NCBI GenBank assembly: GCA_965235115.1
Contig: OZ249436.1
Span: forward strand, 1,552,001 to 1,616,000
DNA length: 64,000 nucleotides
Direction of reading: 5' to 3'
Origin: Laetmonice hystrix
Lineage: Eukaryota
Shown in pieces: positions 24,702 through 60,799 of the stretch; the first letter of the stretch is position 1, and each line of letters opens with the position of its first letter. Position numbers and translations under genes: made by a program. Under the pieces are notes generated by a model, which saw only the letters and a list, made by a program, of their open reading frames with translations, searched no databases and was not told where the DNA came from.

Positions 24702-24752
24702 TGATAAGGATTGAGAGACACAACGGGTATCGAATCTCTTGAGACAGAGTGT

Positions 24753-24768
24753 GGCCCTGACAAGGGCC
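24753..24768 (-). terminator. histone-type 3' stem-loop GGCCCT-TGTC-AGGGCC plus downstream CAAGAGA (HDE-like, 24735-24741)
   Basis: 6-bp stem/4-nt loop, ACGG 5' flank, ACAC 3' flank, 30 nt after the stop. Confidence 0.75.
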
Positions 24769-24798
24769 GTGTAGGTTTGTGTGAGAGAATGGTTCTCT

Positions 24799-25119
24799 TC
24801 ACTGGTGCTGGTCGTCCTCATCCTCGCACACCTCCTCCCAGTCGATCTGAAACTCCTCCATGAGGCGGTCCTGCATATCGTCTAGGAGGTCGGCACGGCT
24901 GTTGGCGTACTCCCAGAACATGTTCCTCACTCCCTCCAGGGTGACCAGACGGAGCCGGTTGTGGTAGCGGAAGGAGCGGCGGTTCTTGCGGACGGCACGT
25001 TCGTGTTTGGTCTTCATTTCCTTGATACGTTTGTTGAGGAGATTGATTTGCTGACAGGCCACCTGGAACTTGCGGTCCATCTGGCGCATCTCAGAGATGA
25101 GTTTATCAACTGGAGCCAT
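24799..25119 (-). CDS. intronless 106-aa helical/coiled-coil protein, copy 1 (type B, MAPVDK)
   Basis: ATG in ACAGTCATGG context, TATAAAA ~85 bp upstream, ORF conserved across 12 copies. Confidence 0.85.
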   Translation of the reverse strand: MAPVDKLISEMRQMDRKFQVACQQINLLNKRIKEMKTKHERAVRKNRRSFRYHNRLRLVTLEGVRNMFWEYANSRADLLDDMQDRLMEEFQIDWEEVCEDEDDQHQ

Positions 25120-26549
25120 GACTGTAGTAAAATATTTTGAGTGAATGATAGCACGCTGAACGTTGAACAAAGTATGTTTCCGAGGAATCCCAGTATTGGT
25201 TTTATAACGCGTTGGGAGGAGTGAGTGTGGAGTTGAGTGTTGATGGCAAGAGGAGGTTATTTGTGAGGTGTGATAACGGGTGCTTACTCTGACCAAATCT
25301 CTCAGCTTTGACACCTTACAAAGTCCTGAGAGAAATAATTTCATTGTTTTATATTATAACGGATTTCATAGGCGTCCCAGGGGAGCGGAGTGGGCGAGGG
25401 TGCGAACGCCCCCCCCCCCCCCACCCGGCCAACGGTGCCCCGAAAATGTTCAAGATTCATTGGTGCAAAAGGTATCAAAACGGAGCCTGGTAGTTCTGTC
25501 CTGACCAGGTGGCACCTGGAGTCGAATTTGATCTATCCTTTGGAAAACATGGGAAGGCCTTTGGCCTCATAGGCCTAAATCCTGAAGGAATCTGACCTAC
25601 AGTTGCTTTGTTATAATATATCTATGTGATATGGCTTTTCTTAAATATTATTATTGAATAGGTTGAATATGGCACGGACACTGTTAATTTTCTTTGTTAG
25701 TGTATAATAGGTTACGCCCCTGCATGGCTCTAGATGTGTCGGGAAGAGTTCTGCATGCTCGTTATTGGGATGTACGGAATTTGGATCCCCGCAATTAGAC
25801 CCAGAAATCTTGTGGGCCCTACCGCCCTCCCAATCACTTGATGTGTGATAACTGTTGGGTAGGTGGCGAGTAAAATATAGTTGGTCGGTTCAGGATTTTT
25901 CTTCTTGGACGAGCCCTAGCTATAGGCCTGAAAGGGGCAAATCTAGGAATGTTTGGAGAACTGAGAGGGTCGCTAACCATGCATTAATCCAAGCCATCAA
26001 AAAAAATAAATCTACACTTCAGCTAAATGAAGACGTTTATTTCATTTCATTAAGAGTCACATTCTTGTAGTTGAGCGTCACGTTGATACAAGACAATGAG
26101 ATCAATGCATGCATAAAACTACAGCAGTCGACAACACTATGCATGCGGCCAGCGCATACTGGATAACGTAGTTGACATTATATAAACGAAGCAGATAACT
26201 TTTTCATAGTTATCCCTGAGTCTTTGACACTTGCTATGTCAGGGAAACGAGAGATGTGATATCAACTTTTATAACAATAAATACACGTACTAGAACATAA
26301 GTCCTATTTTCATTGGATTTCTGTTTTAATTTTCCTTAATAGCTATACCCACAGGTCTCCTGCCAGCTCCATGATTTGTGCGTGATGATGAAGTGAGATT
26401 AGTAACACATTCTCCGCCAGGGAGGAAGTTTTTCAATCCCTCATGTCTGAGAAACCATCACCGAGAGATCGAGTTTCTTGAGCTCGAGTTGTGACTACCT
26501 GACCGTCCTTCAACGTGGTTCTCTCCTGTTCCCATTCTGAAGGGATCAT

Positions 26550-28296
26550 TCAAGGGATTCGTCGGCTGGGTCGTTCTTCTCCGAAACGTCGGCTGGGTCG
26601 TTCTTCTCCATCTCCACCGAAACGTCGGCTGGGTCGCTGTTCTCCATCTCCACCGAAACGTCGGCTGGGTCGTTCTTCTCCATCTCCACCGAAACGTCGG
26701 CTGGGTCGTTCTTCTCCATCTCCACCGAAACGTCGGCTGGGTCGTTCTTCTCCATCTCCACCGAAACGTTGGCTGGGTCGTTCTTCTCCATCTCCACCGA
26801 AACGTCGGCTGTGTCGTTCTTCCCCATCTCCACCGAAACGTCGGCTGGGTCGCTGTTCTCCATCTTCACCGAAACGTCGGCTGGGTCGCTGTTCTCCATC
26901 TCCACCGAAACGTCGGCTGGGTCGTTCTTCTCCATCTTCACCGAAACGTCGGCTGGGTCGCTGTTCTCCATCTCCACCGAAACGTCGGCTGGGTCGCTGT
27001 TCTCCATCTCCACCGAAACGTCGGCTGGGTCGCTGTTCTCCATCTCCACCGAAACGTCGGCTGGGTCGCTGTTCTCCATCTCCACCGAAACGTCGGCTGG
27101 GTCGCTGTTCTCCATCTCCACCGAAACGTCCACTGCGAGGTCGCTCCTGTCCATCACCACGTCGGCAAGGACCCCTGGCAGGCAGGATCTCTTTGAGGTC
27201 ACACCCCTGGTTGTTATCCTCTTCATCATCCAGGATAGAATCCTCATCGTCTTCCTCATCCTCGCCCTCATCTTCCTCATCTTGCTCGTCACCGAATGGG
27301 TCAATAGACTCCTCGTCCTCCTCCAAGGATGATCCAAACCATGGGTTCTCGGGAACACAGATGGACAGCTCGATGTCAGACCTCGAACGTCGCAGCTGTA
27401 CACAGCTCAGGTCTCCCGGGCAGGCTTTCTCTACAAGTGTTTCTCCAGTCGTTCTGTTCACCTTCTTGCATACCTGAGGAGGAAAGAGATGACGATTAAA
27501 ATGAATGCATGTACTTGACATAGTAAGTATAATGACGTGTTGACCTGATGCTAAGTACATGTATATAAAAGGCTAGAATTTTCTGACTTGTTAACTGCAT
27601 GGGAATAGGCTTAAATCCGTGCATTGGGTTAATCCTGAGACTAATTCTGTTCTTGAATACAGCTAAAATAATATCAGTTTCTTAAAAATAATCCGGGGGA
27701 GCCCCCCCCCCCCAAAAAAAACCCCTAAAAATGTGCCCCTCTTCCTGAACCCCTGGATGCTCCACTGATATCGGTAAGTTCGCTTTCAGTGTTATCTCAT
27801 TGTTATAGTCAGTTGATAAAATTAGCGCCATGTGGCACTAGCTTTGTTTTATAATGTCTCATGAGCAACAATGAATTAAGCGTCTAACGAAGCTCGAAAT
27901 ACGCCCTACCTGTGGCTTGCAGACGTGGATTTCTAGATCCCCAAAGGGGCCTTTCTTGTTGATTGGAGAGCAGGTCAGGTTCCGTGGACAGGTTGTTTCA
28001 CATAGCACAACGTCTGAGGTAATGTTCTTCACAAGGCATCCCATGGGTCGGTGATGATGGCGGTGACCGGGCCGAGGGAACCTGTGCCGGTCAGACTCCC
28101 CGGCGTCCTGCTCATCACCCCGGCTAGGCCGGCCACCCTGTGAGGGCGATCCCCGGCGGCCTCCCAGCCGACCTCCCGCCGGCGGTGGCCCCGGCCGCCT
28201 CCCCGGCCTCCCTCCCCGGGGTCGGCCCGAGACGTCGTGGATGGCCAGTATCACCAGCACTGCCGCTATCAAACAAACTACCAAAGTCGACTTCAT
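26550..28296 (-). CDS. secreted Gly/Arg-rich, RGD-containing, Cys-module, acidic/RF-repeat protein, copy 1 (436 aa, 15 full 12-aa repeats)
   Basis: coding exons 28296-27910 and 27473-26550 (CAG|GTAGGG, CCTCAG|GTA, phase 0); non-coding exon 1 donor GTAAGT at 28600; signal peptide MKSTLVVCLIAAVLVILAIHDVSG; AATAAA at ~26036-26041. Confidence 0.88.
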
Positions 28297-28600
28297 CTTC
28301 TGGAATACAAACAGTGGCACATAGTACATTTGTAATAATATTATCTGACTTACAGTGTCCCCATACAAACAGTGGTAGGCCTACATCATCTGAGTTACGA
28401 CGTGACCCATTAACCCATACAAACAGTGGCACATCTGAGTTGGTATCCCCTGGCCTTGGTTCGTTTAGACGTGAACTAAAAGTTAAGGCCTTTAGGCCTA
28501 CATGTCAGGGGGGAAGACGGTCAACGTATCACTGAAGCCTATAGAATGTAACTAATGTTAAGTAAATGAAATAATAAATGAAAAGCTCTATTTAACTTAC

Positions 28601-30296: not shown

Positions 30297-30312
30297 GGCC
30301 CTGACAAGGGCC
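30297..30312 (-). terminator. histone-type stem-loop, copy 2 (downstream element altered to CAATAGA)
   Basis: GGCCCTTGTCAGGGCC. Confidence 0.7.
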
Positions 30313-30342: not shown

Positions 30343-30663
30343 TCACTGGTGCTGGTCGTCAAGGCCCTCGTACACCTCGGCCCAGTCGACCTGAAACTCC
30401 TCCATGAGGCGGTCCTGCATATCGTCCAGGAGGTCGGCACGGCTGTTGGCGTACTCCCAGAACATGTTCCTCACTCCCTCCAGGGTGACCAGACGGAGAC
30501 GGTTGTGGTAGCGGAAGGAGCGGCGGTTCTTGCGGACGGCACGGTCGTATTTGGTATTCATTTCCTTGATACGGTTGTTGAGGAGAATGAGTTGCTGACA
30601 GGCCACCTTGAACTTGCGGTCCATCTGGCGCATCTCTGAGATCAGTTTTTCAACCGTAGCCAT
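30343..30663 (-). CDS. intronless 106-aa coiled-coil protein, copy 2 (type A, MATVEK)
   Basis: paralog of copy 1; TATATAA at ~30743-30749. Confidence 0.85.
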   Translation of the reverse strand: MATVEKLISEMRQMDRKFKVACQQLILLNNRIKEMNTKYDRAVRKNRRSFRYHNRLRLVTLEGVRNMFWEYANSRADLLDDMQDRLMEEFQVDWAEVYEGLDDQHQ

Positions 30664-31121: not shown

Positions 31122-32132
31122 ACATGCTGATGCATGAAGTCATTAGGCCTATTAGCCAGTAATACTCCTCTACCAACAGTAGGGCCTATGTTCAGTGTGG
31201 CCTCATATAATGGGTATTATTTTTAATCCTGGAGGAATCTGTCTTATTTCCTCTTACGTCCATAGCAATCCCTCCGTCAGAGGGCCTCGCGGTATTCCGC
31301 CCGTGTAGTTTATGCCCACTCCGTAAGAGGGCGCCTTAGTGCGTTACCATGTAGCCTCCCCCCTGCAGACTGGCAGATTTCAGGTGGCTAGTAATCCGGT
31401 TCGATAGCCTGCAGGGGGGAGGGGGAAGGGGGCAACTAACCCCCGGGATATCCAGTTTTAAATCATTATTATCGGACTTGGATCTCCAAAATTGACACTG
31501 GAAGTGACACCTAGTACTTCCTCAGGAGGCACTGACCTCCTGCGTATTTGGGCCAGACTGCAACCCTGATGGTATATCAGCCCTTTTTCCTCCCTATTTT
31601 GCGATAAAAGCTTCAAGTGTGAACATGTTTTTTTTCACAATAGTCTGATATGGTATCGATTAAATAGAATTAGGATAATTAATATTTTGGGGGCATTTTT
31701 AAGTTTTATTCTTGGAATGTAATTTTCACACCCCACCGCCGCGTTAAAAGGTTTAATGATTCAGCTGCACACGTGGAAAGCCAATAGGAAAGCCGTGCAG
31801 CAATGCGTGGAAAAGTACTGGAAGTTGTTGAAGAGTAGCAAGTGGACAGATAGATGGATGCATTGATAAACAGTTTAATAGTATAGAGTTTCACATTATG
31901 GGAATATTTGATGCATTTGCTCGTGTAATTTAGGCAGCCACAATATTAAATTCCCTTTTGAAACATTGCCGGATAACTTGCTGCTCTTTCTACACAGCTT
32001 GCAAAGAATGATTGATGGGGGAAGGAATAACAGGCAACATTGGCGTCATAGTAGAAGGAGGTCAAAATATGTTACTCTACGGTTTAAGGATTGAGAGACA
32101 CAACAAGTATCGAATCTCTTGAGACAGAGTGT

Positions 32133-32148
32133 GGCCCTGACAAGGGCC
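32133..32148 (-). terminator. histone-type stem-loop, copy 3
   Basis: GGCCCTTGTCAGGGCC + CAAGAGA. Confidence 0.75.
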
Positions 32149-32178: not shown

Positions 32179-32499
32179 TCACTGGTGCTGGTCGTCATTG
32201 CCCTCGCACACCTCCTCCCAGTCGACCTGAAACTCCTCCATGAGGCGGTCCTGCATATCGTCCAGGAGGTCGGCACGGCTGTTGGCGTACTCCCAGAACA
32301 TGTTCCTCACCCCCTCCAGGGTGACCAGACGGAGCCGGTTGTGGTAGCGGAAGGAGCGGCGGTTCTTGCGGACGGCACGGTCGTATTTGGTATTCATTTC
32401 CTTGATACGATTGTTGAGGAGAATGAGTTGTTGACAGGCCACCTGGAACTTGCGGTCCATCTGGCGCATCTCTGAGATGAGTTTTTCAACCGTAGCCAT
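32179..32499 (-). CDS. intronless 106-aa coiled-coil protein, copy 3 (type A; extra copy in unit 1)
   Basis: intact paralogous ORF with TATA and stem-loop. Confidence 0.85.
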   Translation of the reverse strand: MATVEKLISEMRQMDRKFQVACQQLILLNNRIKEMNTKYDRAVRKNRRSFRYHNRLRLVTLEGVRNMFWEYANSRADLLDDMQDRLMEEFQVDWEEVCEGNDDQHQ

Positions 32500-33572: not shown

Positions 33573-34278
33573 GTTCCATACCACTCCCTCGGTCTGAGGG
33601 CCTCCCAGTATTCCGCCCGTATAGTTTATACCCACTCCCTAAGAGGGCAACTAAGTACGTGACCATATAGCCTTCCCCCTACTCCGTAAGAGGGCAACTA
33701 AGTACGTGACCATATAGCCTTCCCCCTACTCCCTAAGAGGACTACTAAGTACGTGACCATGTAGCCCCCCCCCCCCCCCCCCCGATTTCAGGTGGCTAAT
33801 ATACAGGTCCATAGCCTGCAGGGGAGGGAGAACGGGGCAACTGCCCCCCCCCCCCCAACTGTGATATCCAGTTTTAAATCATTATTATGGGACTTGGATC
33901 TCCAAAATTGACACTTAAAGTGACACCTAGTACTTCCTCAAGAGGCACTGATATGGTATCGATTTAATAGAATTAGGATAATTAATACTGTTGAGGCATT
34001 TTCTAAGCATTGATAAACAGTTTAATAGTATAGAGTTTCACATATTCTGGGAATATTTGCTTCATTTGCTTGTAATTTAGGCAGCCACAATGTGAAATTC
34101 CCTTTTGAAACATTGCCGGATAACTTGCTTTTCTTTCTACGCAGCTTGCAAAGAATGATTCATGGGGAAGAAAGGAAGGACAACATTGGAGTCATAGTAG
34201 AAGGGGGTCAAAATATATTACTCTACGGTTTAAGGACAGAGAGACACAACGAGTATCGAATCTCTTAAGACAGAGTGT

Positions 34279-34294
34279 GGCCCTGACAAGGGCC
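34279..34294 (-). terminator. histone-type stem-loop, copy 4
   Basis: GGCCCTTGTCAGGGCC + TAAGAGA. Confidence 0.75.
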
Positions 34295-34324: not shown

Positions 34325-34645
34325 TCACTGGTGCTGGTCGTCATTGCCCTCGCACACCTCGGCCCAGTCGATCTGAAACTCCTCCATGAGACGGTCCTGC
34401 ATATCGTCCAGGAGGTCGGCACGGCTGTTGGCGTACTCCCAGAACATGTTCCTCACTCCCTTCAGGGTGACCAGACGGAGGCGGTTGTGGTAGCGGAAGG
34501 AGCGGCGGTTCTTGCGGACGGCACGTTCGTGTTTGGTCTTCATTTCCTTGATACGTTTGTTGAGGAGATTGATTTGCTGACAGGCCACCTGGAACTTGCG
34601 GTCCATCTGTCGCATCTCAGAGATGAGTTTATCAACTGGAGCCAT
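34325..34645 (-). CDS. intronless 106-aa coiled-coil protein, copy 4 (type B)
   Basis: intact paralogous ORF. Confidence 0.85.
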   Translation of the reverse strand: MAPVDKLISEMRQMDRKFQVACQQINLLNKRIKEMKTKHERAVRKNRRSFRYHNRLRLVTLKGVRNMFWEYANSRADLLDDMQDRLMEEFQIDWAEVCEGNDDQHQ

Positions 34646-37502: not shown

Positions 37503-39482
37503 CTTCTGAAATACAAACAGTTACAGTGAAACATACATTTGTAATAATATTATCTGACGTACGGTGTCCCCATACAAACAGTGGTACATGAGTTATACAG
37601 TGTGACCCATTAACCCATACAAACATTGGCACATCTCAGTTACGGTATCCCCTGGCCTTGGTTCGTTTCGACGTGAACTAAAAGTTAAGGCCTTTAGGCC
37701 TACATGTCAGGGGAAAAGACGGCCAAAGTATCACTCAAGCCTATAAAATGTAACTAATGTTAAGTAAATGAAATAATAAATGAAAAGCTCTATTTAACTT
37801 ACCGAAAGTTTTCCTCAGCTGGCTTGAAGCAAGTTATGATCGATACTGTGGCAGTAGCAGAGTTGTACTTGCTGACGTCTATTCGTGCTGAGCTCAGTTC
37901 TCGTTCACTTGGACTGTTTGATGTCAACTGATGGTGGTGTGGCCGTTATATACCCTGAGAGTCTAGAAATCGTGATCACCTTTGTGACGTCACTGCCTGC
38001 GAGGGGTTTGTTTGAGGCCACAGATCTGCTGACTGCATGACACACGCGTGGAGGAGCAGTCAACCGTGACGTCTGGAGTATGTACACACCTAGGTTTGCT
38101 GCATCTAAATGCTGGGTTTAATACTATTTTTAGATCTACCCCCTGTCACGACGATATATGATCCATGATTCATTGAAGCGATCAATACAGGGCCTGCTGT
38201 TTTTACTGTCCTCATACCATTCACACAGCTATTTCTGGAGGTTCCATGACGGTCCAAATGATGTTTAATATGTTAGAGAAAATGTGTAACGGATCGTACA
38301 CAATGTTTGCGGACTGGCTCACTGACGTGTGGCGGGCAGTGTACCTACGTTACTCACGTTATTTTAATTATGTGCATTGAACGTCATTAAATTATCTTCA
38401 AGATTATTCCATGTGCCTTACAGCAAATCGGCCATTGCCTTAATTGTATTGAAGGTGTACAGAGAAGGTAGGTTTCTGGAAGGGCCCTATAATCACCCCA
38501 CCCCTAGAAATCAAAGACAGTTCAGACCAGTCAGACAAGGGAAGGGTGGCATGGAGCAGCCAGTTGTATGCCATACTGTTATACAGGCGAGGGGTTTGTT
38601 TAAGGTCACAGATCTGCTGACTACGTCAGACACGCGTGGAGGGGCAGTCAACCGTGACGTCTGGAGTATGTGTACACCTAGGTTTGCTGCAGCCTAATGC
38701 TTGGTTCAATCCTATTTTTAGATCTACCCCTGTCACGACGACATGGTCCATTGAGGCTATCAATACACGTCAGGACCTACGACTTTATTTTTACTTTCAT
38801 TATACATGTATTATTCATGGAGCTATTTCTGGAGGTTCCATGACGTCGGGCTTAACAAGATGTTTAATGTTAGCAAAAATGTGTAAAGAATCGTCCGCAA
38901 TATTGTACAGAAAAGGTAAGGTTCTGAAAGGGCCCTATAATCACCCCACCCCTAGAAATCAAAGACAGTTCAGACCAGTCAGACAAGGGAAGGGTGGAAT
39001 GGAGCGGCCAGTTGTATGTCATACTGTTATACACAGACAAAATCGATCCTACCAATCCTAAGACAAGTGGACAATACCGGAATTACCGGGTGGCTTTTCA
39101 CTGCTACCACTCTGGATTGACCCAATAAGTATCGAATCCTTGGAGAAAAACAAATCAAAGTTGTTTGGAAAAAGGAGGTATTTAGGTTGGCTTTCAATGA
39201 TTTTGTTACCTTTTTAGGCACGTTTTGAGCAAGTTTCAAGGAGTGCTGTATGTGGTGCTGTCGGAGATGTGACTGCTGTGGCCACAGGTCTACATTTATT
39301 ACTGTGTCTCCTTTTCTCACCGAAAGTACACAACATAGCTTCTCTATACGCTGGTTGCAAAGACTAATTGATAGGGGGACGTAAGAAAAGATATGAGTCA
39401 TGGCAGGAGGGGTCAAATATATTACTCTACGGTTTAAGGATACAGAGACACAACAAGTATCGAATCTCTTGAGACAGAGTGT

Positions 39483-39498
39483 GGCCCTGACAAGGGCC
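39483..39498 (-). terminator. histone-type stem-loop, copy 5
   Basis: GGCCCTTGTCAGGGCC + CAAGAGA. Confidence 0.72.
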
Positions 39499-39528: not shown

Positions 39529-39777
39529 TCACTGGTGCTGGTCGTCATCGCCCTCGTACACCTCGGCCCAGTCGACCTGAAACTCCTCCATGAGGCGGTC
39601 CTGCATATCGTCCAGGAGGTCTCTCAGGAAGGAGCGGCGGTTCTTGCGGACGGCACGGTCGTATTTGGTCTTCATTTCCTTGATACGATTGTTGAGGAGA
39701 ATGAGTTGCTGACAGGCCACCTTGAACTTGCGGTCCATCTGGCGCATCTCTGAGATGAGTTTTTCAACCGTAGCCAT
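39529..39777 (-). CDS. coiled-coil protein, copy 5 (type A) with an in-frame net 24-aa deletion (82 aa); possible pseudogene
   Basis: RYHNRLRLVTLEGVRNMFWEYANSRA is replaced by LR; promoter and stem-loop are intact. Confidence 0.7.
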   Translation of the reverse strand: MATVEKLISEMRQMDRKFKVACQQLILLNNRIKEMKTKYDRAVRKNRRSFLRDLLDDMQDRLMEEFQVDWAEVYEGDDDQHQ

Positions 39778-40223: not shown

Positions 40224-41232
40224 ACATGCTGATGCATGAAGTCATTAGGCCTATTAGCCAGTAATACTCCTCTACCAACAGTAGGGCCTATGTTCAGTGT
40301 GGCCTCATATAATGGGTATTATTTTTTAATCCTGGAGGAATCTGTCTTATTTCCTCTTACTTCCATAGCAATCCCTCCGTCAGAGGGCCTCGCGGTATTC
40401 CGCCCGTGTAGTTTATGCCCACTCCGTAAGAGGGCGCCTAAGTGCGTTACCATGTAGCCTCCCCCCTGCAGACTAGCAGAGTTCAGGTGGCTAGTAATCC
40501 GGTTCTATAGCCTGCAGGGGGGAGGGGGAAGGGGGCAACTGCCCCCGGGATATCCAGTTTTAAATCATTATTATGGGACTTGGATCTCCAAAATTGACAC
40601 TGGAAGTGACACCTAGTACTTCCTCAGGAGGCACTGACCTCCTGCGTATTTGGGCCAGACTACAACCCTGATGGTATATCAGCCCTTTTTCCTCCCTATT
40701 TTGCTTAAAAGCTTCAAGTGTGAACATGTTTTTTTCACAATAGTCTGATATGGTATCGATTAAATAGAATTAGGATAATTAATATTTTTGGGGCATTTTT
40801 AAGTTTTATTCTTGGAATGTAATTTTCAGACCCCACCGCCGCGTTAAAAGGTTTAATGATTCAGCAGCACACGTGGAAGGCCAATAGAAAAGCCGTGCAA
40901 CAATGCGTGGAAAAGGACTGGAAGTTGTTAAAGAGTAGCAAGTGGACAGATAGATGGATGCATTGATAAACAGTTTAATAGTATAGAGTTTCACATTATG
41001 GGAATATTTGATGCATTTGCTCGTGTAATTTAGGCAGCCACAATATAAAATTCCCTTTTGAAACATTGCCGGATAACTTGCTTCTCTTTTTACACAGCTT
41101 GCAAAGAATTGTTGATGGGGGAAGGAATAACAGGCAACGTTGGAGTCATAGTAGAAGGGGGTCAAAATATATTACTCTACGGTTTAAGGATTGAGAGACA
41201 CAACAGGTATCGAATCTCTTGAGACAGAGTGT

Positions 41233-41248
41233 GGCCCTGACAAGGGCC
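41233..41248 (-). terminator. histone-type stem-loop, copy 6
   Basis: GGCCCTTGTCAGGGCC + CAAGAGA. Confidence 0.75.
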
Positions 41249-44494: not shown

Positions 44495-45975
44495 CTTCTG
44501 AAATACAAACAGTTACAGTGAAACATACATTTGTAATAATATTATCTGACTTACAGTGTCCCCATACAAACAGTGGTACATAGTACATTTGTAATAATAT
44601 TATCTGACGTACGGTGTCCCCATACAAACAGTGGTAGGCCTACATAATCTGAGTTACGACGTGACCCATTAACCCATACAAACAGTGGTAGGCCTACATA
44701 ATCTGAGTTACGACGTGACCCATTAACCCATACAAACAGTGGCACATCTGAGTTACGGTGTCCGCTGGCCTTGGTTCGTTTAGACGTGAACTAAAAGTTA
44801 AGGCCGTTAGGCCTACATGTCAGGGGAAAAGACGGTCAACGTATCACTGAAGCCTATAGAATGTAACTAATGTTAAGTAAATGAAATAATAAATGAAAAG
44901 CTCTATTTAACTTACCGAAAGTGTTCCTCAGCTGGCCTGAAGCAAGTTATGATCGGTACTGTGGCAGTAGCAGAGTTGTACTTGCTGACGTCTATTCGTG
45001 CTGAGCTCAGTTCTCGTTCACTTGGACTGTTTGATGTCAACTGATGGTGGTGTGGCCGTTATATACCCTGAGATTCTAGAAATCGTGATCACCTTTGTGA
45101 CGTCAATGGTTGGCCAGGGGTTTGTATAAGGTCACAGGTCTGCGGACGGCATGGGACACCCGCCGAGGCGCAGTCAACCGTGACGTCTGGAGTATGTACA
45201 TGTATACACCTTGGTTTGATGTGGCCTAATGCTGGGTTCAATCCTATTTTTAGATCTACCCCTGTCACGACGACATGGTCCATTGAGGCTATCAATACAC
45301 GTCAGGACCTACGACATTATTTTTACTTTCATTATATTATTCATCGAGCTATTTCTGGAGGTTCCATGACGTCGGGCTTAAATAGATGTTTAATGTTAGC
45401 AAAAATGTGTAAAGAATCGTCTACAATATAGTACAGAAAAGGTAGGGTCTGAAAGGGAATCACCCCACCCCTAGAAATCAAAGACAGTTCAGACCAGTCA
45501 GACAATGGATAGGTGGAATGGAGCAGACAAAATCGATCCAACAATCATTGTTAAGACAAGTGGACAATACCTGAATTACCGGGTGGCTTTTCACTGCTAC
45601 CACTCTGGATTGACCCAATAAGTATTGAATCCTTGGGGAAAACCAAATCAAAATTGTATGGAAAAAGTAGATATTTAGGTTGGCTTTCCAAGATTTTGTT
45701 ACCTTTTTAGGTCAGTTTTCAGCAAGTTTTAAGGAGTGCTGTGTGTGGTTCTGTCGGAGATGTGACTGCTGTGGACACAGTTCTACATTTATTACTGTGT
45801 CTCCTTTTCTCACCGAAAGTACACAACATAGCTTCTCTATACGCTGGTTGCAAAGACTAATTGATAGGGGGACGTAAGAAAAGATATGAGTCATGGCAGG
45901 AGGGGTCAAATATATTACTCTACGGTTTAAGGATAGAGAGACACAACAAGTATCGAATCTCTTGAGACAGAGTGT

Positions 45976-45991
45976 GGCCCTGACAAGGGCC
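45976..45991 (-). terminator. histone-type stem-loop, copy 7
   Basis: GGCCCTTGTCAGGGCC + CAAGAGA. Confidence 0.75.
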
Positions 45992-46021: not shown

Positions 46022-46342
46022 TTACTGGTGCTGGTCGTCATGGCCCTCGTACACCTCGGCCCAGTCGACCTGAAACTCCTCCATGAGGCGGTCCTGCATA
46101 TCGTCCAGGAGGTCGGCACGGCTGTTGGCGTACTCCCAGAACATGTTCCTCACTCCCTCCAGGGTGACCAGACGGAGGCGGTTGTGGTAGCGGAAGGAGC
46201 GGCGGTTCTTGCGGACGGCACGGTCGTATTTGGTATTCATTTCCTTGATACGGTTGTTGAGGAGAATGAGTTGCTGACAGGCCACCTTGAACTTGCGGTC
46301 CATCTGGCGCATCTCTGAGATGAGTTTATCAACTGGAGCCAT
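46022..46342 (-). CDS. intronless 106-aa coiled-coil protein, copy 7 (type-A position, B-type MAPVDK N-terminus)
   Basis: intact ORF, TAA stop. Confidence 0.85.
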   Translation of the reverse strand: MAPVDKLISEMRQMDRKFKVACQQLILLNNRIKEMNTKYDRAVRKNRRSFRYHNRLRLVTLEGVRNMFWEYANSRADLLDDMQDRLMEEFQVDWAEVYEGHDDQHQ

Positions 46343-47667
46343 GACTGTAGTAAGATATGCTGGGGAATGGTCGCACACTGATGGCTGAACGAAGTATGTT
46401 TCCAAGTAGTCCTAGTACCGGTTATATATGGTGGGAAAGAGTGAGTGTGGAGTTGAGTGTTGATGGCAAGAGGAGGTTATTTGTGAGGTGTGATAACGGG
46501 TGCTTACTCTGACCTAATCGCTCAGCTTTGACACCTGACAAAGGTGTCAGACGCTGTAGTCCTGAGATCTTGTCCGTCTCTGTCTCTCTGTCTCTGCCTC
46601 TGTCTCTCTCTGTCTCTCTGTCTCTTTCTGTCTCTCTCTCTATCTCTCTGTCTGTCTCTCTCACATGGTGATGTACCACGTTTCAGGCCAGTAACACTCC
46701 TCTACCAACAGTAGAGCCTATAACCAATTCAGTGTGGCCTCATATAATGGCCGTTATTTTTTTAATCCTGGAGGAATCTGTCTTAATTCCTCTTACTTCC
46801 ATAGCACTCCCTCCGTCAGAGGGCCTCGCGGTATTCCACCGATGTAGTTATAGGCCTACCACTCCATAAATGGGCGACTAAGTACGTGACCATGTGGCCC
46901 CCTCTCCTTGCAGACTGGCAGATTTCAGGTGGCTAGTATACTGTCTGTAGCCTGCGGGGGGAGGGGGAAGGAGACAACCCTCCTTGGATATCCAGTTTAA
47001 AATAATTATTATAGGGCTGGATCACCAAAATTGACACTGGATTTGACACCTAGTAATTCTTCAGGAGGCACTGCCCTCTTGCGTATTTGGGCCAGACTAC
47101 GGCCCTGGTATATTTGTTTTTTTCTCCCTATTTTGCGATAAAGGCTTCATGTGGGAACATGTTTGTTTTTCTGCATTAGTCTGATATAGTATAGTTTCAA
47201 TAAGATTAGGATAATGAATATGTTTGAGGTCTTTTAAAGTTTTATTCTTGAAGCGTAATTTTCACCCCCTCCCCTAGTTTAGTTTAGTGCTTTAGCTGCA
47301 ACACGTGGAATCCAAATAGACCGGCCTTGTAGCAATGCATAGAAAAGGACTGGAAGTTGTTCAAGAGTAGCAAGTGGGCAGACAGATGGATGGGTTCATA
47401 AAGAGTTTATTAGCAAAGAGTTTCATATTTTACGGGAATATTTGAGACAGTTTTTGGCAATATTATATGCAGCCACAATGTGATTTTCCTTTTTCAAACA
47501 TTGCCGGATAACTTGTTTCTCTTTCTACGCAGCTTGCAAAGAATGATTCATGGGGGAAGGAAGAAAAGACAAGATTGGAGTCATAGTAGAAGGGGGTCGA
47601 AATATATTACTCTACGGTTTAAGGATAGAAAGACACAACAAGTATCGAATCTCTTGAGACAGAGTGT

Positions 47668-47683
47668 GGCCCTGACAAGGGCC
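47668..47683 (-). terminator. histone-type stem-loop, copy 8
   Basis: GGCCCTTGTCAGGGCC + CAAGAGA. Confidence 0.75.
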
Positions 47684-47713: not shown

Positions 47714-48034
47714 TCACTGGTGCTGGTCGTCATCGCCCTCGTACACCTCGGCCCAGTCGATCTGAAACTCCTCCATGAGACGGTCCTGCATATCGTCCAG
47801 GAGGTCTGCACGGCTGTTGGCGTACTCCCAGAACATGTTCCTCACTCCCTCCAGGGTGACCAGACGGAGACGGTTGTGGTAGCGGAAGGAGCGGCGGTTC
47901 TTGCGGACGGCACGTTCGTGTTTGGTCTTCATTTCCTTGATACGTTTGTTGAGGAGATTGATTTGCTGACAGGCCACCTGGAACTTGCGGTCCATCTGGC
48001 GGATCTCTGAGATGAGTTTGTCAACTGGAGCCAT
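47714..48034 (-). CDS. intronless 106-aa coiled-coil protein, copy 8 (type B)
   Basis: intact paralogous ORF. Confidence 0.85.
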   Translation of the reverse strand: MAPVDKLISEIRQMDRKFQVACQQINLLNKRIKEMKTKHERAVRKNRRSFRYHNRLRLVTLEGVRNMFWEYANSRADLLDDMQDRLMEEFQIDWAEVYEGDDDQHQ

Positions 48035-50709: not shown

Positions 50710-52235
50710 CTTCTGGAAACCAAACAGTGGCACTTAGTACATTTGTAATAATATTATCTGACGTACAAACAGTGGTAGGCCTACATAATTACGACGTGAC
50801 CCATTAACCCATAAAAACATTGGCACATCTGTGTTCCGGTATCCCCTGGCCTTGGTTCGTTTAGACGTGAACTAAAAGTTAAGGCCTAAGTTAGGCCTAC
50901 ATGTCAGGGGGAAAGACGGTCAACGTATCACTGAAGCCTATAGAATGTAACTAATGTTAAGTAAATGAAATGATAAATGAAAAGCTCTATTTAACTTACC
51001 GAAAGTGTTCCTCAGCTGGCCTGAAGCAAGTTATGATCGGTACTGTGGCAGTAGCAGAGTTGTACTTGCTGACGTCTATTCGTGCTGAGCTCAGTTCTCG
51101 TTCACTTGGACTGTTTGATGTCAACTGATGGTGGTGTGGCCGTTATATTCCCTGAGAGTCTAGAAATCGTGATCACCTCCGTGACGTCACTGGCTGCGAG
51201 GGGTTTGTTTGAGGCCACAGATCTGCTGACGGCATGACACACGCGTGGAGGGGCAGTCGACCGTGACGTCTGGAGTATGTACACACCTAGGTTTGCTGCA
51301 TCTAAATGCTGGGTTTAATACTATTTTTAGATCTACCCCCTGTCACGACGATGTATGATCCATGATTCCTTGAAGCGATCAATACAGGGCCTGCTGTTTT
51401 TACTATCCTCATACCATTCACAGAGCTATTTCTGGAGGTTCCATGACGTTCCAAATGATGTTTCATATGTTAGGGGAAATGTGTAACGAATCGTACACAA
51501 TGTTCGCGGACTGCCTCACTGACGTGTGGCGGGGAGTGTACCTACGTTACTCACGTTATTTTAATTATGTACATTGAACGTCATTAAATTATCTTCAAGA
51601 TTATTCCATGTGCCTTACAGCAAATCGGTCATTGCCTTAATTGTATTGAAGGTGTACAGAGAAGGTAGGTTTCTGGAAGGGCCCTATAATCACCCCACCC
51701 CTAGAAATCAAAGACAGTTCAGACCAGTCAGACAAGAGAATGGTGGAATGGAGCAGCCAGTTGTATGCCATACTGTTCCCAGACAAAATCGATCCTAACA
51801 ATCATTGTCAAGACAAGTGGACAATACCTGAATTACCCGGCGGCTGCTCAGTGCTACCACTCTGGATTGACCCAACAATTAGTATCGAATCCTTGGAGAA
51901 AAACAAATGAAAGTTGTTTGGAAAAAGTAGGTATTTAGGTTGGGTTTAGATGATTTTGTTACCTTTTTAGGCCAGTTTTGAGCAAGTTTCAAGGAGCGCT
52001 GTATGTGGTGCTGTCGGAGATGTGACTGATGTGGCCACAGTTCTGCATTTATTACTGTGTCTCCTTTTCTCACCGAAAGTACACAACATAGCTTCTCTAT
52101 ACGCTGGTTGCAAAGACTAATTGATAGGGGGACGTAAGAAAAGATATGAGTCATGGCAGGAGGGGTCAAATATATTACTCTACGGTTTAAGGATACAGAG
52201 ACACAACAAGTATCGAATCTCTTGGGACAGAGTGT

Positions 52236-52251
52236 GGCCCTGACAAGGGCC
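52236..52251 (-). terminator. histone-type stem-loop, copy 9
   Basis: GGCCCTTGTCAGGGCC + CAAGAGA. Confidence 0.75.
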
Positions 52252-52281: not shown

Positions 52282-52602
52282 TCACTGGTGCTGGTAGTCA
52301 TGGCCCTCGTACACCTCGGCCCAGTCGACCTGAAACTCCTCCATGAGGCGGTCCTGCATATCGTCCAGGAGGTCGGCACGGCTGTTGGCGTACTCCCAGA
52401 ACATGTTCCTCACCCCCTCCAGGGTGACCAGACGGAGCCGGTTGTGGTAGCGGAAGGAGCGGCGGTTCTTGCGGACGGCACGGTCGTATTTGGTCTTCAT
52501 TTCCTTGATACGATTGTTAAGGAGAATGAGTTGTTGACAGGCCACCTTGAACTTGCGGTCCATCTGGCGCATCTCAGAGATGAGTTTTTCAACCGTAGCC
52601 AT
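52282..52602 (-). CDS. intronless 106-aa coiled-coil protein, copy 9 (type A)
   Basis: intact paralogous ORF. Confidence 0.85.
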   Translation of the reverse strand: MATVEKLISEMRQMDRKFKVACQQLILLNNRIKEMKTKYDRAVRKNRRSFRYHNRLRLVTLEGVRNMFWEYANSRADLLDDMQDRLMEEFQVDWAEVYEGHDYQHQ

Positions 52603-53056: not shown

Positions 53057-54199
53057 ACTCATTCTCTCTCTCTCTCTTTCTCTCTCTCCTTCTCTCTCCC
53101 TGTCTGTCTCTCTCTCCCCCTATCTCTCTCTCTCATTCCCTCTCTCTCTCACTCTCTCCCCTATCTCTTTCTCTCAATCCCTCTCTCTCCTTCTCTCTCT
53201 CTCTCTTTCTCTCACATGCTGATGCATGAAGCCAGTAATACTCCTCTACCAACAGTAGGGCCTATGTTCAGCGTGGCCTCATATAATGTTATTTTTTAAT
53301 GCTGGGGGAATCTGTCTTAATTCCTCTTACTTCCATAGCAATCCCTCCGTCAGAGGGCCTCGCGGTATTCCGCCCGTGTAGTTTATGCCCACTCCGTAAG
53401 AGGGCGACTAAGTACGTGACCATGTGGCTCCCTCTCCTTGTAGACTGACAGATTTCAGGTGGCTAGTAGGCCTATACTGTCCGTAGCCTGCGGGGGGAGG
53501 GGGGAGGGGGCAGCCGTCCTTGGATATCCAGTTTAAAATAATAATTATGGCGCTGGATCCCCAAAATTGACACTGGAATTGACACGCTAGTACTTCTTCA
53601 CGAGGCACTGCCCTCCTACGTATTTGGGCCAGACTACGGCCCTGCTATATTTGTTTTTTCCTCCCTATTTTGCGATAAAGGCGTCATGTGTGAACATGTT
53701 TGTTTTCTGCATTAGTCTGATATAGTATAGTTTCAATATGATTAGGATAAGAAATATGTTTGAGGTGTTTTAAAGTTTTATTCTTGAAGCGTAATTTTCA
53801 CCCCCTCCCCCAGTTTAGTTTAGTGCTTTAGCTGCAACACGTGGAATCCAAATAGAACAGCCTTGTAGCAATGCATAGAAAAGGACTGGACGCTGTTCAA
53901 GAGTAGCAAGTGGACAGACAGATGGATGGGTTCATAAAGAGTTTAATAGCAATGAGTTTCATATTTTACGGGAATATTTGAGACAGTTTTTGGCAATATT
54001 ATATGCAGCCACAATGGGATTTTTCTTTTTCAAACATTGCCAGATAATGTGTTTCTCTTTCTACGCAGCAAAGAATGATTCATGGGGGAAGGAAGAAAAG
54101 ACAAGATTGGAGTCATAGTAGAAGGGGGTCAAAATATGTTACTCTATGGTTTAAGGATAGAGAGACACAACAGGTATCGAATCTCTTGAGACAGAGTGT

Positions 54200-54215
54200 G
54201 GCCCTGAGAAGGGCC
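54200..54215 (-). terminator. histone-type stem-loop, copy 10 (loop variant TCTC)
   Basis: GGCCCT-TCTC-AGGGCC + CAAGAGA. Confidence 0.75.
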
Positions 54216-54245: not shown

Positions 54246-54566
54246 TCACTGGTGCTGGTCGTCCTCATCCTCGCACACCTCCTCCCAGTCGACCTGAAAC
54301 TCCTCCATGAGGCGGTCCTGCATATCGTCTAGGAGGTCAGCACGGCTGTTGGCGTACTCCCAGAACATGTTCCTCACTCCCTCCAGGGTGACCAGACGGA
54401 GACGGTTGTGGTAGCGGAAGGAGCGGCGGTTCTTGCGGACGGCACGGTCGTGTTTGGTCCTCGTGTCCCTGATACGGTTGTTGAGGAGATTGATTTGCTG
54501 ACAGGCCACCTGGAACTTGCGGTCCATCTGGCGCATCTCAGAGATGAGTTTATCAACTGGAGCCAT
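54246..54566 (-). CDS. intronless 106-aa coiled-coil protein, copy 10 (divergent/mosaic: RIRDTRTKHDR)
   Basis: intact ORF; B-type TATA region with an A-type 5' leader. Confidence 0.85.
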   Translation of the reverse strand: MAPVDKLISEMRQMDRKFQVACQQINLLNNRIRDTRTKHDRAVRKNRRSFRYHNRLRLVTLEGVRNMFWEYANSRADLLDDMQDRLMEEFQVDWEEVCEDEDDQHQ

Positions 54567-57399: not shown

Positions 57400-58779
57400 C
57401 TTCTGGAATACAAACAGTTAACAGTGAAGCATACATTTGTACAATAATATTATCTGACGTACGGTGTCCCCATACAAACAGTGGTACATGAGTTATACGG
57501 TGTAACCCATTAACCCATACAAACAGTGGCACATCTGAGTTACGCTATCCTCTGGCCTTGGTTCGTTTAGACGTGAACTAAAAGTTAAGGCCTTTAGGCC
57601 TACATGTCAGGGGGGAAGACGATCAACGTATCACTGAAGCCTATAGAATGTAATTAATGTTAAGAAAATGAAATAATAAATGAAAAGCTCTATTTAACTT
57701 ACCGAAAGTGTTCCTCAGCTGGCCTGAAGCAAGTTATGATCGATACTGCGGCAGTAGCAGAGTTGTACTTGCTGACGTCTATTCGTGCTGAGCTCAGTTC
57801 TCGTTCGCTTGGACTGTTTGATGTCAACTGATGGTGGTGTGGCCGTTATATACCCTGAGATTCTAGAAATCGTGATCACCTTTGTGACGTCAATGGTTGG
57901 AAAGGGGTTTGTTTAAGGTCACAGGTCTGCGGACGGCATGATACACCCGTCGAGGCGCAGTCAACCGTGACGTCTGGAGTATGTGTACACCTAGGTTTGA
58001 TGTATCCTAATGCTGGGTTCAATCCTATTTTTAGATCTACCCCTCTCACGACGGCATCGTCCATTGAGGCTATCAATACACGTCAGGACCTACGACATTA
58101 TTTTTACTTTCATTATATTATTCATGGAGCTATTTCTGGAGGTTCCATGACGTCAGGCTTAAAAAAATGTTTAATGTTAGCAAAAATGTGTAAAGAATCG
58201 TCTACAATATTGTACACAAAAGGTAGGGTTCTGGAAGGGTCCTATAATCACCCCACCCCTAGAAATCAAAGACAGTTCAGACCAGTCAGACAATGGATGG
58301 GTGGAATGGAGCAGCCATACTGTTCCCAGACAAAATCGATCCTAACAATCATTGTTAAGACAAGTGGACAATACCTGAATTACCCAGTGGCTTCTCAGTG
58401 CTACCACTCTGGATTGACCCAATAAATATTGAATCCTTGGAGAAGACCAAATCAAAATTCTATGGAAAAAGTAGATATTTAGGTTGGCTTCCGAGGATTT
58501 TGTTACCTTTTTAGGCAAGTTTTCAGCAAGTTTTAAGGAGCGCTGTATGTGGTTCTGTCGGAGATGTGACTGCTGTGGCCACAGTTCTGCATTTATTACT
58601 GTGTCTCCTTTTCTCACCGAAAGTACACAACATAGCTTCTCTATACGCTGGTTGCAAAGAATGTTTGATAGGGGACGTAAGAAAAGATTGGAGTCAAGGC
58701 AGAAGGGGGTCAAATATATTACTCTACGGTTTAAGGATTGAGAGACACAACAAGTGTCAAATCTCTTGAGACAGAGTGT

Positions 58780-58795
58780 GGCCCTGACAAGGGCC
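58780..58795 (-). terminator. histone-type stem-loop, copy 11
   Basis: GGCCCTTGTCAGGGCC + CAAGAGA. Confidence 0.75.
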
Positions 58796-58825: not shown

Positions 58826-59146
58826 TCACTGGTGCTGGTCGTCATCGCCCTCGTACACCTCGGCCCAGTCGACCTGAAACTCCTCCATGAGGCGGTCCTG
58901 CATATCGTCCAGGAGGTCGGCACGGCTGTTAGCGTACTCCCAGAACATGTTCCTCACCCCCTCCAGGGTGACCAGACGGAGCCGGTTGTGGTAGCGGAAG
59001 GAGCGGCGGTTCTTGCGGACGGCACGGTCGTGTTTGGTCTTCATTTCCTTGATACGGTTGTTGAGGAGAATGAGTTGCTGACAGGCCACCTTGAACTTGC
59101 GGTCCATCTGGCGCATCTCTGAGATGAGTTTATCAACTGTAGCCAT
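58826..59146 (-). CDS. intronless 106-aa coiled-coil protein, copy 11 (type A, MATVDK)
   Basis: intact paralogous ORF. Confidence 0.85.
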   Translation of the reverse strand: MATVDKLISEMRQMDRKFKVACQQLILLNNRIKEMKTKHDRAVRKNRRSFRYHNRLRLVTLEGVRNMFWEYANSRADLLDDMQDRLMEEFQVDWAEVYEGDDDQHQ

Positions 59147-60432
59147 GACTGTAGTAAGATATGCTGGAGAATGGTTGCACGCTGAAGGCTGAACGAAGTA
59201 TGTTTCCAAGTAGTCCTAGTGCCGGTTATATATGGTGGGAAAGAGTGAGTGTGGAGGTGAGTGTTGATGGCGAGAGGAGGTTATCTGTGAGGTGTGATAA
59301 CGGGTGCTCACTCTGACCTAGTTGCTCAGCTTTGACACCTGACAAAGGTGTCAGACGCTGTAGGCTGAGATCTTATCCGCCTCTGTCTCTCTCTCTCTCT
59401 GTCTCTTTGTCTCTTTCTCTCTCTCTCTCTCTGTCTCTTTCTCTCTCTCTCTATCTCTCTGTCTGTCCCTCTCACATGGTGATGTACCAAGTTTTCAGGT
59501 ATATTAGCCAGTAAGTGCCCTCTACCAACAGTAGGGCCTATAACCAATTCAGTGTGACCTCATATAATGGCCGTTATTTTTTAATCCTGGAGGAATCTGT
59601 CTTAATTCCCCTTACTTCCATAGCAATCCCTCCGTCAGAGGGCCTCGCGGTATTCCACCGATGTAGTTATACCCACTCCGTAAGAGGGCGACGTGACCCT
59701 GTGGCCCCCTCTTCTTGCAGGCTGACAGATTTCAGGTGGCTAGTATACAGGTCTGTATAGCCCGCGGGGGGAGGGGGAGGGGGCAACCCTCCTTGGATAT
59801 CCAGTTTAAAATAATTATTATGGGGCTGGATCCCCAAAATTGACACTGGAATTGACACCTAGTACTACAGCCCTGCTTTATTTGTTTTTTCCTCCCTATT
59901 TTGCGATAAAGGCTTCATGTGTGAACTTTTTTTTTCTGCATTAGTCTGATATAGTATAGTTTCAATAAAATTAGGATAATGAATATGTCTGAGGTGTTTT
60001 AAAGTTGTATTCTTGAAGCGTAATTTTCACCCCCTCCCCCAGTTTAGTTTAGTGCTTTAGCTGCAACACGTGGAATCCAAATAGAACAGCCTTGTAGCAA
60101 TGCATAGAAAAGGACTGAACGCTGTTCAAGAGTGGCAAGTGGACAGACAGATGGATGGGTTCATAAAGAGTTTAATAGCAAAGAGTTTCTTATTTTACGG
60201 GAATATTTGAGACAGTTTTTGGCAATATTATATGCAGCCACAATGTGATTTTCCTTTTTCAAACATTGCCGGATAACGTGTTTCTCTTTCTACGCAGCTT
60301 GCAAAGAATGATTTATGGGGGAAGGAAGAAAAGACAAGATTGGAGTCATAGTAGAAGGGGGTCAAAATATGTTACTTTATAGTTTAAGGATAGAAAGACA
60401 CAACAAGTATCGACTCTCTTGAGACAGAGTGT

Positions 60433-60448
60433 GGCCCTGACAAGGGCC
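60433..60448 (-). terminator. histone-type stem-loop, copy 12
   Basis: GGCCCTTGTCAGGGCC + CAAGAGAG. Confidence 0.75.
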
Positions 60449-60478
60449 GTGTAGGTTTGTGTGAGAGAATGGTTCTCT

Positions 60479-60799
60479 TCACTGGTGCTGGTCGTCATCG
60501 CCCTCGCACACCTCGGCCCAGTCGACCTGAAACTCCTCCATGAGGCGGTCCTGCATATCGTCCAGGAGGTCGGCACGGCTGTTGGCGTGCTCCCAGAACA
60601 TGTTCCTCACTCCCTCCAGGGTGACCAGACGGAGCCGGTTGTGGTAGCGGAAGGAGCGGCGGTTCTTGCGGACGGCACGTTCGTGTTTGGTCTTCATTTC
60701 CTTGATACGTTTGTTGAGGAGATTGATTTGCTGACAGGCCACCTGGAACTTGCGGTCCATCTGGCGCATCTCTGAGATGAGTTTATCAACTGGAGCCAT
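60479..60799 (-). CDS. intronless 106-aa coiled-coil protein, copy 12 (type B)
   Basis: intact paralogous ORF. Confidence 0.85.
   Translation of the reverse strand: MAPVDKLISEMRQMDRKFQVACQQINLLNKRIKEMKTKHERAVRKNRRSFRYHNRLRLVTLEGVRNMFWEHANSRADLLDDMQDRLMEEFQVDWAEVCEGDDDQHQ

Follow-up and report, generated by a model that had tools for sequence, protein, structure and literature searches.

The 64-kb stretch of Laetmonice hystrix DNA examined in this study (contig OZ249436.1; C1:1552001-1616000 of a 627-Mb assembly in 35 contigs; hereafter the window) carries twelve copies of an intronless gene family whose product is not predicted to be a histone, and each family gene ends in what reads as a histone-type 3′ signal, that is, a stem-loop, an ACA-type cleavage region and a histone downstream element (HDE) of the form AAAGAnTCGAT at fixed spacing. 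The family carries both cis elements and has kept them under selection, in a form that matches the signals of this genome's own histone genes, and its coding sequence is under purifying selection. From these elements we infer SLBP binding, U7 pairing, the cleavage site, absence of a poly(A) tail and cell-cycle coupling of the family mRNAs, and functional processing of the SLBP/U7 type is considered likely. A first-pass annotation of the window had proposed that a non-histone family carries the histone stem-loop and HDE, and this proposal is supported, as far as sequence analysis goes, by retention of the signal in paralogs and in homologues.

The 3′ signals in the window

Searching the 64-kb window with the pattern GGCCCTTNTCAGGGCC returned 12 matches, all on the − strand, while any match was found in 0 of 100 shuffles. 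The hairpins read GGCCCTT[G/C]TCAGGGCC (n=12), and all twelve have the features by which histone stem-loops are recognized: a 6-bp stem with a G-C G-C base and a U-A top, and a 4-nucleotide (nt) loop with U at positions 1 and 3. In 12/12 copies exactly 30 nt lie between a stop codon and the start of the stem, and ACAC comes after the stem, again in 12/12; AC precedes it in 11/12, the remaining copy (stem 39483-39498) having GC. The loop is TGTC in 11 copies and TCTC in one (stem 54200-54215). The spacing, the flanking dinucleotides and the single loop change had all been described in the first-pass annotation, and the pattern search together with the open reading frame (ORF) positions bears them out. 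Past the ACAC, the order continues with an 8-nt pyrimidine-rich spacer and then AAGAGATTCGAT or a near variant, in which AAGAGA lies 12 nt past the stem in 11/12 copies (AATAGA at the copy with stem 30297-30312) and continues into TTCGAT, GTCGAT or TTTGAC.

Twelve intronless ORFs lie upstream of these hairpins. Eleven encode 106 amino acids (aa) and one (39529-39777) encodes 82 aa, with 24 codons missing in frame, so that the earlier description of an intronless 106-aa gene in every copy holds for the lack of introns throughout and for the length in 11/12. Each of the eleven 106-aa copies has a TATA box (TATAAAA or TATATAA) 86-87 nt upstream of its ATG. The copies are best read as real, intronless, TATA-preceded genes.

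Comparison with the histone 3′ ends of this genome

A PF00125 search located core-histone quartets (H3, H4, H2B, H2A) in ~7.4-kb repeats on C4 and in shorter ~6-7-kb repeats on C20, where an H1 array was also found. The histone 3′ ends of this genome read GG(C/T)(C/T)CT-(T/C)CTC-AG(G/A)(G/A)CC, followed by (C/A)CCACA, a variable spacer of ~7 nt and a downstream element with invariant AAG and TCGAT, which occurs in the forms AAAAGAGTCGAT, AAAGAATCGAT, AAAGATTCGAT or AGAAGTGTCGAT. AAAGAnTCGAT is common to all five histone classes of the genome (H1, H2A, H2B, H3, H4); it is the histone downstream element of this species, and the same motif is present in the family genes. In H3 and H4 the TCGA is offset 21 nt past the stem.

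A covariance model, R1, was built from 8 histone 3′ ends only (H3, H4, H2A, H2B, H1 and an H2A variant; invariant CCACA, AAG and TCGAT), and both strands of the window and of 28 other loci of this genome (184 kb together) were searched with it. R1 matched 12/12 window copies at 21.0-34.6 bits (E 1e-6 to 9e-3) and nothing else in the window, and its matches to diverged paralogs were stronger, up to 57.3 bits (E 6e-13). Comparison with the species' own histone 3′ ends had been put forward as a check on the first-pass proposal, and a model that knows only histones thus recovers the family signal, in the window and, as described below, in 55/57 family copies. The twelve signals are as follows, with scores for the Rfam family RF00032 (Histone3) and for R1.

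24729..24768, − strand: 3′ signal of copy 1; hairpin 24753-24768, ACAC, spacer, HDE AAGAGATTCGAT at 24729-24740; RF00032 24.9 bits, R1 28.4 bits
30273..30312, − strand: 3′ signal of copy 2; hairpin 30297-30312, HDE variant AATAGATTCGAT; RF00032 22.3, R1 28.8
32109..32148, − strand: 3′ signal of copy 3; hairpin 32133-32148 and HDE; RF00032 24.9, R1 29.5
34255..34294, − strand: 3′ signal of copy 4; hairpin 34279-34294 and HDE; RF00032 23.5, R1 28.6
39459..39498, − strand: 3′ signal of copy 5; hairpin 39483-39498 (GC before the stem) and HDE; RF00032 21.9, R1 28.1
41209..41248, − strand: 3′ signal of copy 6; hairpin 41233-41248 and HDE; RF00032 24.9, R1 28.6
45952..45991, − strand: 3′ signal of copy 7; hairpin 45976-45991 and HDE; RF00032 21.2, R1 29.4
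47644..47683, − strand: 3′ signal of copy 8; hairpin 47668-47683, ACACTCTGTCTC, HDE AAGAGATTCGAT at 47644-47655; RF00032 24.9, R1 29.5
52212..52251, − strand: 3′ signal of copy 9; hairpin 52236-52251 and HDE; RF00032 24.3, R1 28.4
54176..54215, − strand: 3′ signal of copy 10; hairpin 54200-54215 with loop TCTC, the histone loop of this genome, and HDE; RF00032 30.5 (best in the window), R1 34.6
58756..58795, − strand: 3′ signal of copy 11; hairpin 58780-58795, HDE variant AAGAGATTTGAC; RF00032 26.4, R1 21.0 (lowest)
60409..60448, − strand: 3′ signal of copy 12; hairpin 60433-60448, HDE AAGAGAGTCGAT; RF00032 25.1, R1 31.1

Two features of the histone genes themselves were also seen. The H4 hairpin (L020:1733-1748, on C4) has the loop CCTC, so that its first loop position is C and not U; in the remaining histone classes the loop is TCTC. 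Tandem H2B-like arrays at four loci (L054-L057; C10:28.04 Mb, C3:20.49 Mb, C8:8.45 Mb and C4:14.82 Mb) have a reading frame that is broken after the first half (..NDIFERGFTSGPLQPPLYH..) and retain an H2B-type hairpin and HDE; they could be pseudogene arrays or a frameshifted variant.

Retention of the signal across the gene family

Little can be concluded from conservation within the window, since its copies are young: synonymous divergence (dS) between the two copy types is ~0.07. The flanks differ at few positions only and the whole 3′ region is nearly identical, so the earlier statement that the stem is invariant while the flanking DNA varies stands for the stem, and the contrast with the flanks is weak. 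Flanks as conserved as the stem would also be expected if the signal were a non-functional hitch-hiker, that is, a histone 3′ module captured, for example from H4, and copied along unused by tandem amplification and gene conversion. The diverged members of the family bear on this explanation.

A six-frame search with the 106-aa protein gave at least 151 matches in the genome, a lower bound since 150 of 518 candidates were scored. Further arrays lie on C1, on C19 (71 rows with a ~1.3-kb period) and on C6 (one array), and diverged paralogs with 33-74% identity are found on C2, C3, C4, C5, C6, C8, C21 and C30, so that family paralogs are spread over at least 10 contigs. When the whole genome was searched with RF00032, 11 of the 14 best matches lay directly 3′ of diverged family paralogs (C5, C8, C21) at 37.3-40 bits, above the gathering threshold of 34; of the remaining three, one belonged to an H2A variant, one was an orphan hairpin within the C5 cluster and one lay in a dispersed element described below.

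A same-strand R1 match was found no more than 450 nt downstream of 55 of 57 family tblastn hits, which cover 34-100% protein identity and come from 24 sources (the window and 23 loci). Broken down by identity, 15/16 copies were positive at 85% identity or more, 12/12 at 70-85%, 13/13 at 50-70% and 15/16 below 50%. The two negative copies are a truncated one (L043:3696-3977) and L047, discussed below. Loss of the hairpin in diverged paralogs had been named in the first-pass annotation as the outcome that would speak against its proposal, and down to 34% identity, with dS saturated, the hairpin was kept. Between the window genes and paralogs on C3, C6, C30 and C2, dS is 0.76 to >2 (saturated) and the ratio of nonsynonymous to synonymous divergence (dN/dS) is 0.10-0.26; taken over such diverged paralogs generally, dN/dS is 0.08-0.26. 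The stretch between stop and stem is 16-99 nt in most paralogs and has no similarity between subfamilies, so that the 3′ untranslated regions (UTRs) cannot be aligned, and yet stem, ACA-type tail and HDE persist. Because the UTR spacers are unrelated and dS is this high, neutral sequence has been randomized while the signal was not, which argues that the 3′ signal is retained by selection and not by recent copying.

The parsed set of 45 distinct family 3′ ends is consistent with this. The stem is GGCCCT/AGGGCC in 40/45, T occupies loop position 1 in 43/45 and position 3 in 44/45, position 2 being G, T, C or A, and TCGA starts 20 nt past the stem in 27/45. In the stem alignment 99.6% of cells are paired, and pair 3 changes from C-G to U-A in 3 distinct sequences (and to U-G in one more), an alternative that is also found among the histone genes.

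A hitch-hiking module would find some support in a 24-mer over spacer and HDE that is identical between the H4 3′ flank and the C5/C21 paralogs, which hints that the module may have been captured from, or converted against, an H4 gene, and in pseudogene fragments of the C5 cluster that still carry a hairpin. However, the persistence of the signal at dS 0.76 to >2 within unalignable 3′ UTRs, its presence in 15/16 copies below 50% identity and in homologues from other sources, and the compensatory C-G to U-A change that keeps the stem all point the other way. Stem decay, moreover, goes with damaged or atypical genes, such as the pseudogene fragment with a broken stem at L027:194-424 and the truncated copy at L043:3696-3977. 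An unused relic is therefore considered very unlikely.

Two other arrangements of histone-type hairpins were seen in this genome. At L042:7354-7534 (C1, ~3.767 Mb) six tandem hairpins with a 33-nt period come after a single family gene, and of these the last alone has an HDE behind it. The dispersed element is present in at least 10 places (L048-L052 at C18:7.141 Mb, C1:29.317 and 37.207 Mb, C2:11.955 Mb and C7:32.903 Mb, and further 35.5-bit rows); it begins with a repeat of minisatellite character in which no gene can be recognised, and 75-274 nt beyond the repeat come a canonical hairpin GGCCCTTTTCAGGGCC and an HDE-like CAAAAGAAGAGAT. The element scores above the RF00032 threshold.

The encoded protein

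Neither the query, nor 22 aligned members, nor 15 longer relatives gave a match over the cut-off of any Pfam family, and histone families including PF00125 matched 0/22 members. An AlphaFold2 model from the 22-sequence alignment (predicted local distance difference test, pLDDT, 92.5; predicted template modelling score, pTM, 0.78) has two long antiparallel helices, residues 3-44 and 48-90. Foldseek found nothing in PDB at E<=0.001; above that level came generic helical hairpins (PspA, ESCRT-III, prefoldin), the best rows being of the PspA/ESCRT-III type at E >=0.24. An ESM Atlas search returned unnamed clusters only. The sole match in a profile search of PDB sequences was tropomyosin (E 0.024), which was dismissed as coiled-coil noise. 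The N-terminal half is basic (residues 1-50, isoelectric point (pI) 11) and the last 31 residues are acidic (pI ~4). On these models the protein, of ~105 aa, is a two-helix hairpin without the three-helix histone fold and not a histone, in agreement with what the first-pass annotation had said of it. A complex prediction with the family protein and this genome's H2A and H2B gave a median score of 0.31 (mark 0.34), which counts neither for nor against binding.

The very high copy number and the tandem arrays could also mean that the ORF is part of a repeat or mobile element, all the more as the separate, non-coding-looking dispersed element carries a histone-type hairpin as well; and a basic half with an acidic tail would suit a very diverged histone-like chromatin protein, for which "non-histone" would be only naming. 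Against the first of these stand dN/dS values of 0.08-0.39, a single ortholog type conserved in named gastropods and bivalves, and a Pfam scan that found no transposase or reverse-transcriptase domain and no Pfam family at all; against the second stand the predicted two-helix hairpin in place of the three-helix histone fold and the lack of any member matching PF00125. An origin of either kind is highly improbable, and a non-functional relic and a non-gene taken together are still unlikely.

Homologues in other sources

A profile search returned 1021 cluster representatives (50% identity clusters) at E<=0.001, 549 of them at E<=1e-10, and a second database gave 183 proteins at E<=1e-5. Among the 120 matches listed, 10 carry an organism name, and these come from nine mollusc species, both gastropods and bivalves. 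The family is apparently large and mollusc-wide, to judge from these matches. The named homologues are all labelled "hypothetical", "unnamed" or "uncharacterized" and have no Pfam domain. Compared by protein sequence alone, the uncharacterised molluscan proteins (MAR_017287 of Mya arenaria, and those of Batillaria, Biomphalaria, Elysia, Lymnaea, Sinanodonta, Nucella and Arion) belong to the same family as the window protein, with profile E-values of 1e-19 to 1e-42, the same length and the same core of ACQQ..LLN, RYDRA, SFRY..RLRL, EGVRNM and YA; none bears a functional name.

The hairpin was also seen in homologues, another check that the first-pass annotation had suggested. In 11/156 collected homologues the protein has a C-terminal read-through that translates a histone hairpin (GPFKG, GPSQG, GSFQS, ALFRA, ALVRA and others), and several of these peptides continue with SQK (= CAAAAG); the chance expectation for such five-residue matches is ~0.3 by a rough estimate. 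Scanning marine metagenomes with the family profile confirmed no locus. The same scan with P0285, which is ~35% identical to the window protein, gave 18 loci, and 15 of these have a hairpin 26-38 nt past the stop, with AACC-type sequence and then GAAAGA behind it.

Among the named gastropods and bivalves one subgroup, the "KKNSFRYNLRLRLSVVTGVKMMYHHY" type, has hardly changed in sequence, and its copy in this genome is L047. It is plausible, on this distribution, that the family goes back to an old gene of ordinary kind and that the histone 3′ end was gained by the offshoots that expanded.

Processing machinery and evidence to the contrary

The genome encodes an SLBP RNA-binding domain in two exons at C5:10536109-10538197 (54.6 and 37.7 bits; cut-off 27). 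U7 small nuclear RNA (snRNA) was not found in a search of the genome with RF00066 (best E 1.38), and three patterns that join an anti-HDE to a U7-type Sm site gave 1, 4 and 11 hits, against 3, 10 and 25 for reversed-pattern controls. Seven U7 candidates (five loci and two more) were read or Rfam-scanned and rejected, as none resembles U7 and none matches RF00066. Comparison with the histone HDEs takes the place of a test of HDE-U7 pairing in this study.

The negative U7 search is one of several observations that weigh against SLBP/U7-type processing of the family mRNAs. At the gathering threshold of 34 bits, RF00032 has 0 matches in the window, and the Rfam check proposed in the first-pass annotation therefore failed at that level; with E-value reporting all 12 hairpins match full length at 21.2-30.5 bits. 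The window loops have G at position 2, and the A-rich consensus is absent from their 5′ flank, CCTACAC. The stem shows little covariation (one pair, three distinct sequences), which is weak as structural proof but normal for a stem that a protein reads by its sequence. The stems at L033 have 5 bp only. The metagenome stems (L065-L079) are mismatched at pair 4, with C.A (GGCCCT/AGAGCC) in 12 loci and A.C (GGCACT/AGCGCC) in 3; none reaches the RF00032 gathering threshold and R1 gives them 11-21 bits, so these are derived from histone hairpins and are not canonical. L047 (C8:18.855 Mb; 693-979), the deeply conserved ortholog type, has no proximal hairpin, so not every family member carries the signal close to its stop; ~860 nt downstream, and on the same strand, there is a variant hairpin GGCTTTCAAAAAAGCC accompanied by a perfect HDE (1838-1895). 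Finally, AATAAA or ATTAAA hexamers are present 182-257 nt downstream of the stem in 11/12 window copies, and polyadenylated read-through is conceivable.

The last point leads to a different account, in which expression is dual or mainly polyadenylated: transcripts would read through to the downstream sites, and the stem-loop would act at certain stages or as an internal SLBP-binding element. Polyadenylated read-through is known for some histone genes in non-dividing cells, and H2A.X yields both stem-loop and polyadenylated mRNAs. The sub-threshold RF00032 scores of the window hairpins favour this account along with the hexamers, and so do polyadenylated forms of replication-dependent histone mRNAs, as reported in PMC5100578 and PMC3661734. 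However, the HDE is needed for U7-dependent cleavage only and is kept at fixed spacing across dS-saturated paralogs. The hexamers sit in recent duplicates and amount to about two independent observations, and such hexamers are expected by chance about once per 2 kb (an estimate). Dual or mainly polyadenylated expression is thus unlikely, and SLBP/U7-type processing remains the preferred reading.

Gene copies and tandem units

The family genes of the window are arranged in a tandem unit of ~6.3-6.6 kb that mostly holds two family genes and one unrelated secreted-protein gene. The family genes are as follows.

24799..25119, − strand: family gene copy 1, 106-aa ORF and stop, intronless
30343..30663, − strand: family gene copy 2, 106 aa and stop
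32179..32499, − strand: family gene copy 3, 106 aa and stop
34325..34645, − strand: family gene copy 4, 106 aa and stop
39529..39777, − strand: family gene copy 5, 82 aa, in-frame loss of 24 codons
41279..41599, − strand: family gene copy 6, 106 aa and stop
46022..46342, − strand: family gene copy 7, 106 aa and stop (TAA)
47714..48034, − strand: family gene copy 8, 106 aa and stop; sequence used as query and for the fold model; TATAAAA 87 nt upstream of the ATG
52282..52602, − strand: family gene copy 9, 106 aa and stop
54246..54566, − strand: family gene copy 10, 106 aa and stop
58826..59146, − strand: family gene copy 11, 106 aa and stop
60479..60799, − strand: family gene copy 12, 106 aa and stop

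When 20 upstream regions of family and histone genes were compared, no common motif was found beyond TATA boxes, and CCAAT in 4/20. Upstream of some family copies there are long (AG)n/(GA)n-rich microsatellite tracts (30900-31100 and 52830-53222). In DNA-like Logan contigs (three runs from one sample of one study; records up to 160 kb) there is a depth step over copy 8, from bin 47627-47683 to bin 48026-48082, which fits copy number and is uninformative on transcripts.

Each unit also has, on the − strand (26546-28329, 36081-37502, 43174-44494, 49331-50709, 55979-57399 and 62273-63664), a 145-aa ORF that begins like a signal peptide and contains several cysteines (MKSTLVVCLIAAVLVILAIHDVSG...), and beside it an ORF of acidic and GDGEQRPSRRFG repeats whose number varies among units. 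The pattern search of the window found no histone hairpin at the 145-aa ORFs or the adjoining repeat ORFs. A further tandem repeat at 15708-16401, in which all three − strand frames read 22-aa units of the MVPIATFHGSDRYLPWFRSLPS type, is probably a minisatellite and not a gene.

Discussion

The data presented in this study place the family close to replication-dependent histone genes in nearly everything except its product. Like those genes, the family is intronless, TATA-preceded, arranged in tandem arrays and short in its 3′ UTR; it has the 6-bp stem with GG base and U-A top, the loop U1 and U3 and then ACA or CCA; and it has a purine-rich HDE at fixed distance, which in this genome is AAAGAnTCGAT. 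Unlike them, it encodes a predicted two-helix hairpin protein that has neither a histone fold nor a Pfam family, its window clade falls short of the Rfam threshold and carries a G as the second loop nucleotide, and its genes lie outside the histone clusters (C4 at 36.5 Mb, C20 at 7.2 Mb). There is also a likeness to the histone genes and variants that, according to PMC5100578 and PMC3661734, yield both stem-loop and polyadenylated mRNAs, since in the window copies too a stem-loop and HDE are followed by poly(A) hexamers further downstream. The family differs from these dual-ended genes in being non-histone, and use of the downstream sites is here only a possibility.

If the signal works as it does in histone genes, SLBP would bind the hairpin on the nascent transcript, the U7 small nuclear ribonucleoprotein (snRNP) would pair with the downstream element, and a CPSF73-containing cleavage factor would cut a few nt past the stem, with ends expected 3-5 nt after it (...GGGCCACA). 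The resulting mRNA of ~420 nt would end in the stem-loop without a poly(A) tail, and for that reason it would be exported, translated and degraded in concert with histone mRNAs, in step with S phase or with the rapid cleavages of the embryo.

The element is of a known kind, and its context, a non-histone cargo, is unprecedented. The stem-loop and downstream signal are otherwise known as marks of histone messages alone. No published account of a histone 3′ end on a non-histone gene family emerged from a full-text literature search, though an earlier mention in the survey of Davila Lopez and Samuelsson (2008) is possible. For human cells, PMC4604434 reports that crosslinking and immunoprecipitation (CLIP) and RNA immunoprecipitation (RIP) of SLBP recovered no genuine non-histone target. 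Given that a full stem-loop and HDE are kept under selection, the family, whose copies run into the hundreds in a genome and which forms over a thousand clusters at 50% identity, would be the first non-histone clients of the histone 3′ pathway. As a natural experiment, it could reveal what the histone 3′ end alone confers, and it would point to a protein whose supply follows DNA replication. Transcriptomes prepared by poly(A) selection, together with annotations derived from them, would systematically miss the family genes, and this may be why the named homologues all lack informative names.

A broader and tentative proposal, possible but less probable than not, is that in molluscs a second and very large class of mRNAs ends in the stem-loop without polyadenylation, and that the dipolar helical-hairpin protein is made in step with histones and acts on newly replicated chromatin or on histones, for instance as a stoichiometric chaperone or packaging partner in gametogenesis or in the rapid cleavages of the embryo. 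If such a second class of mRNAs exists, the SLBP/U7 system would be a general S-phase expression cassette that can be attached to other genes, and not one reserved for histones.

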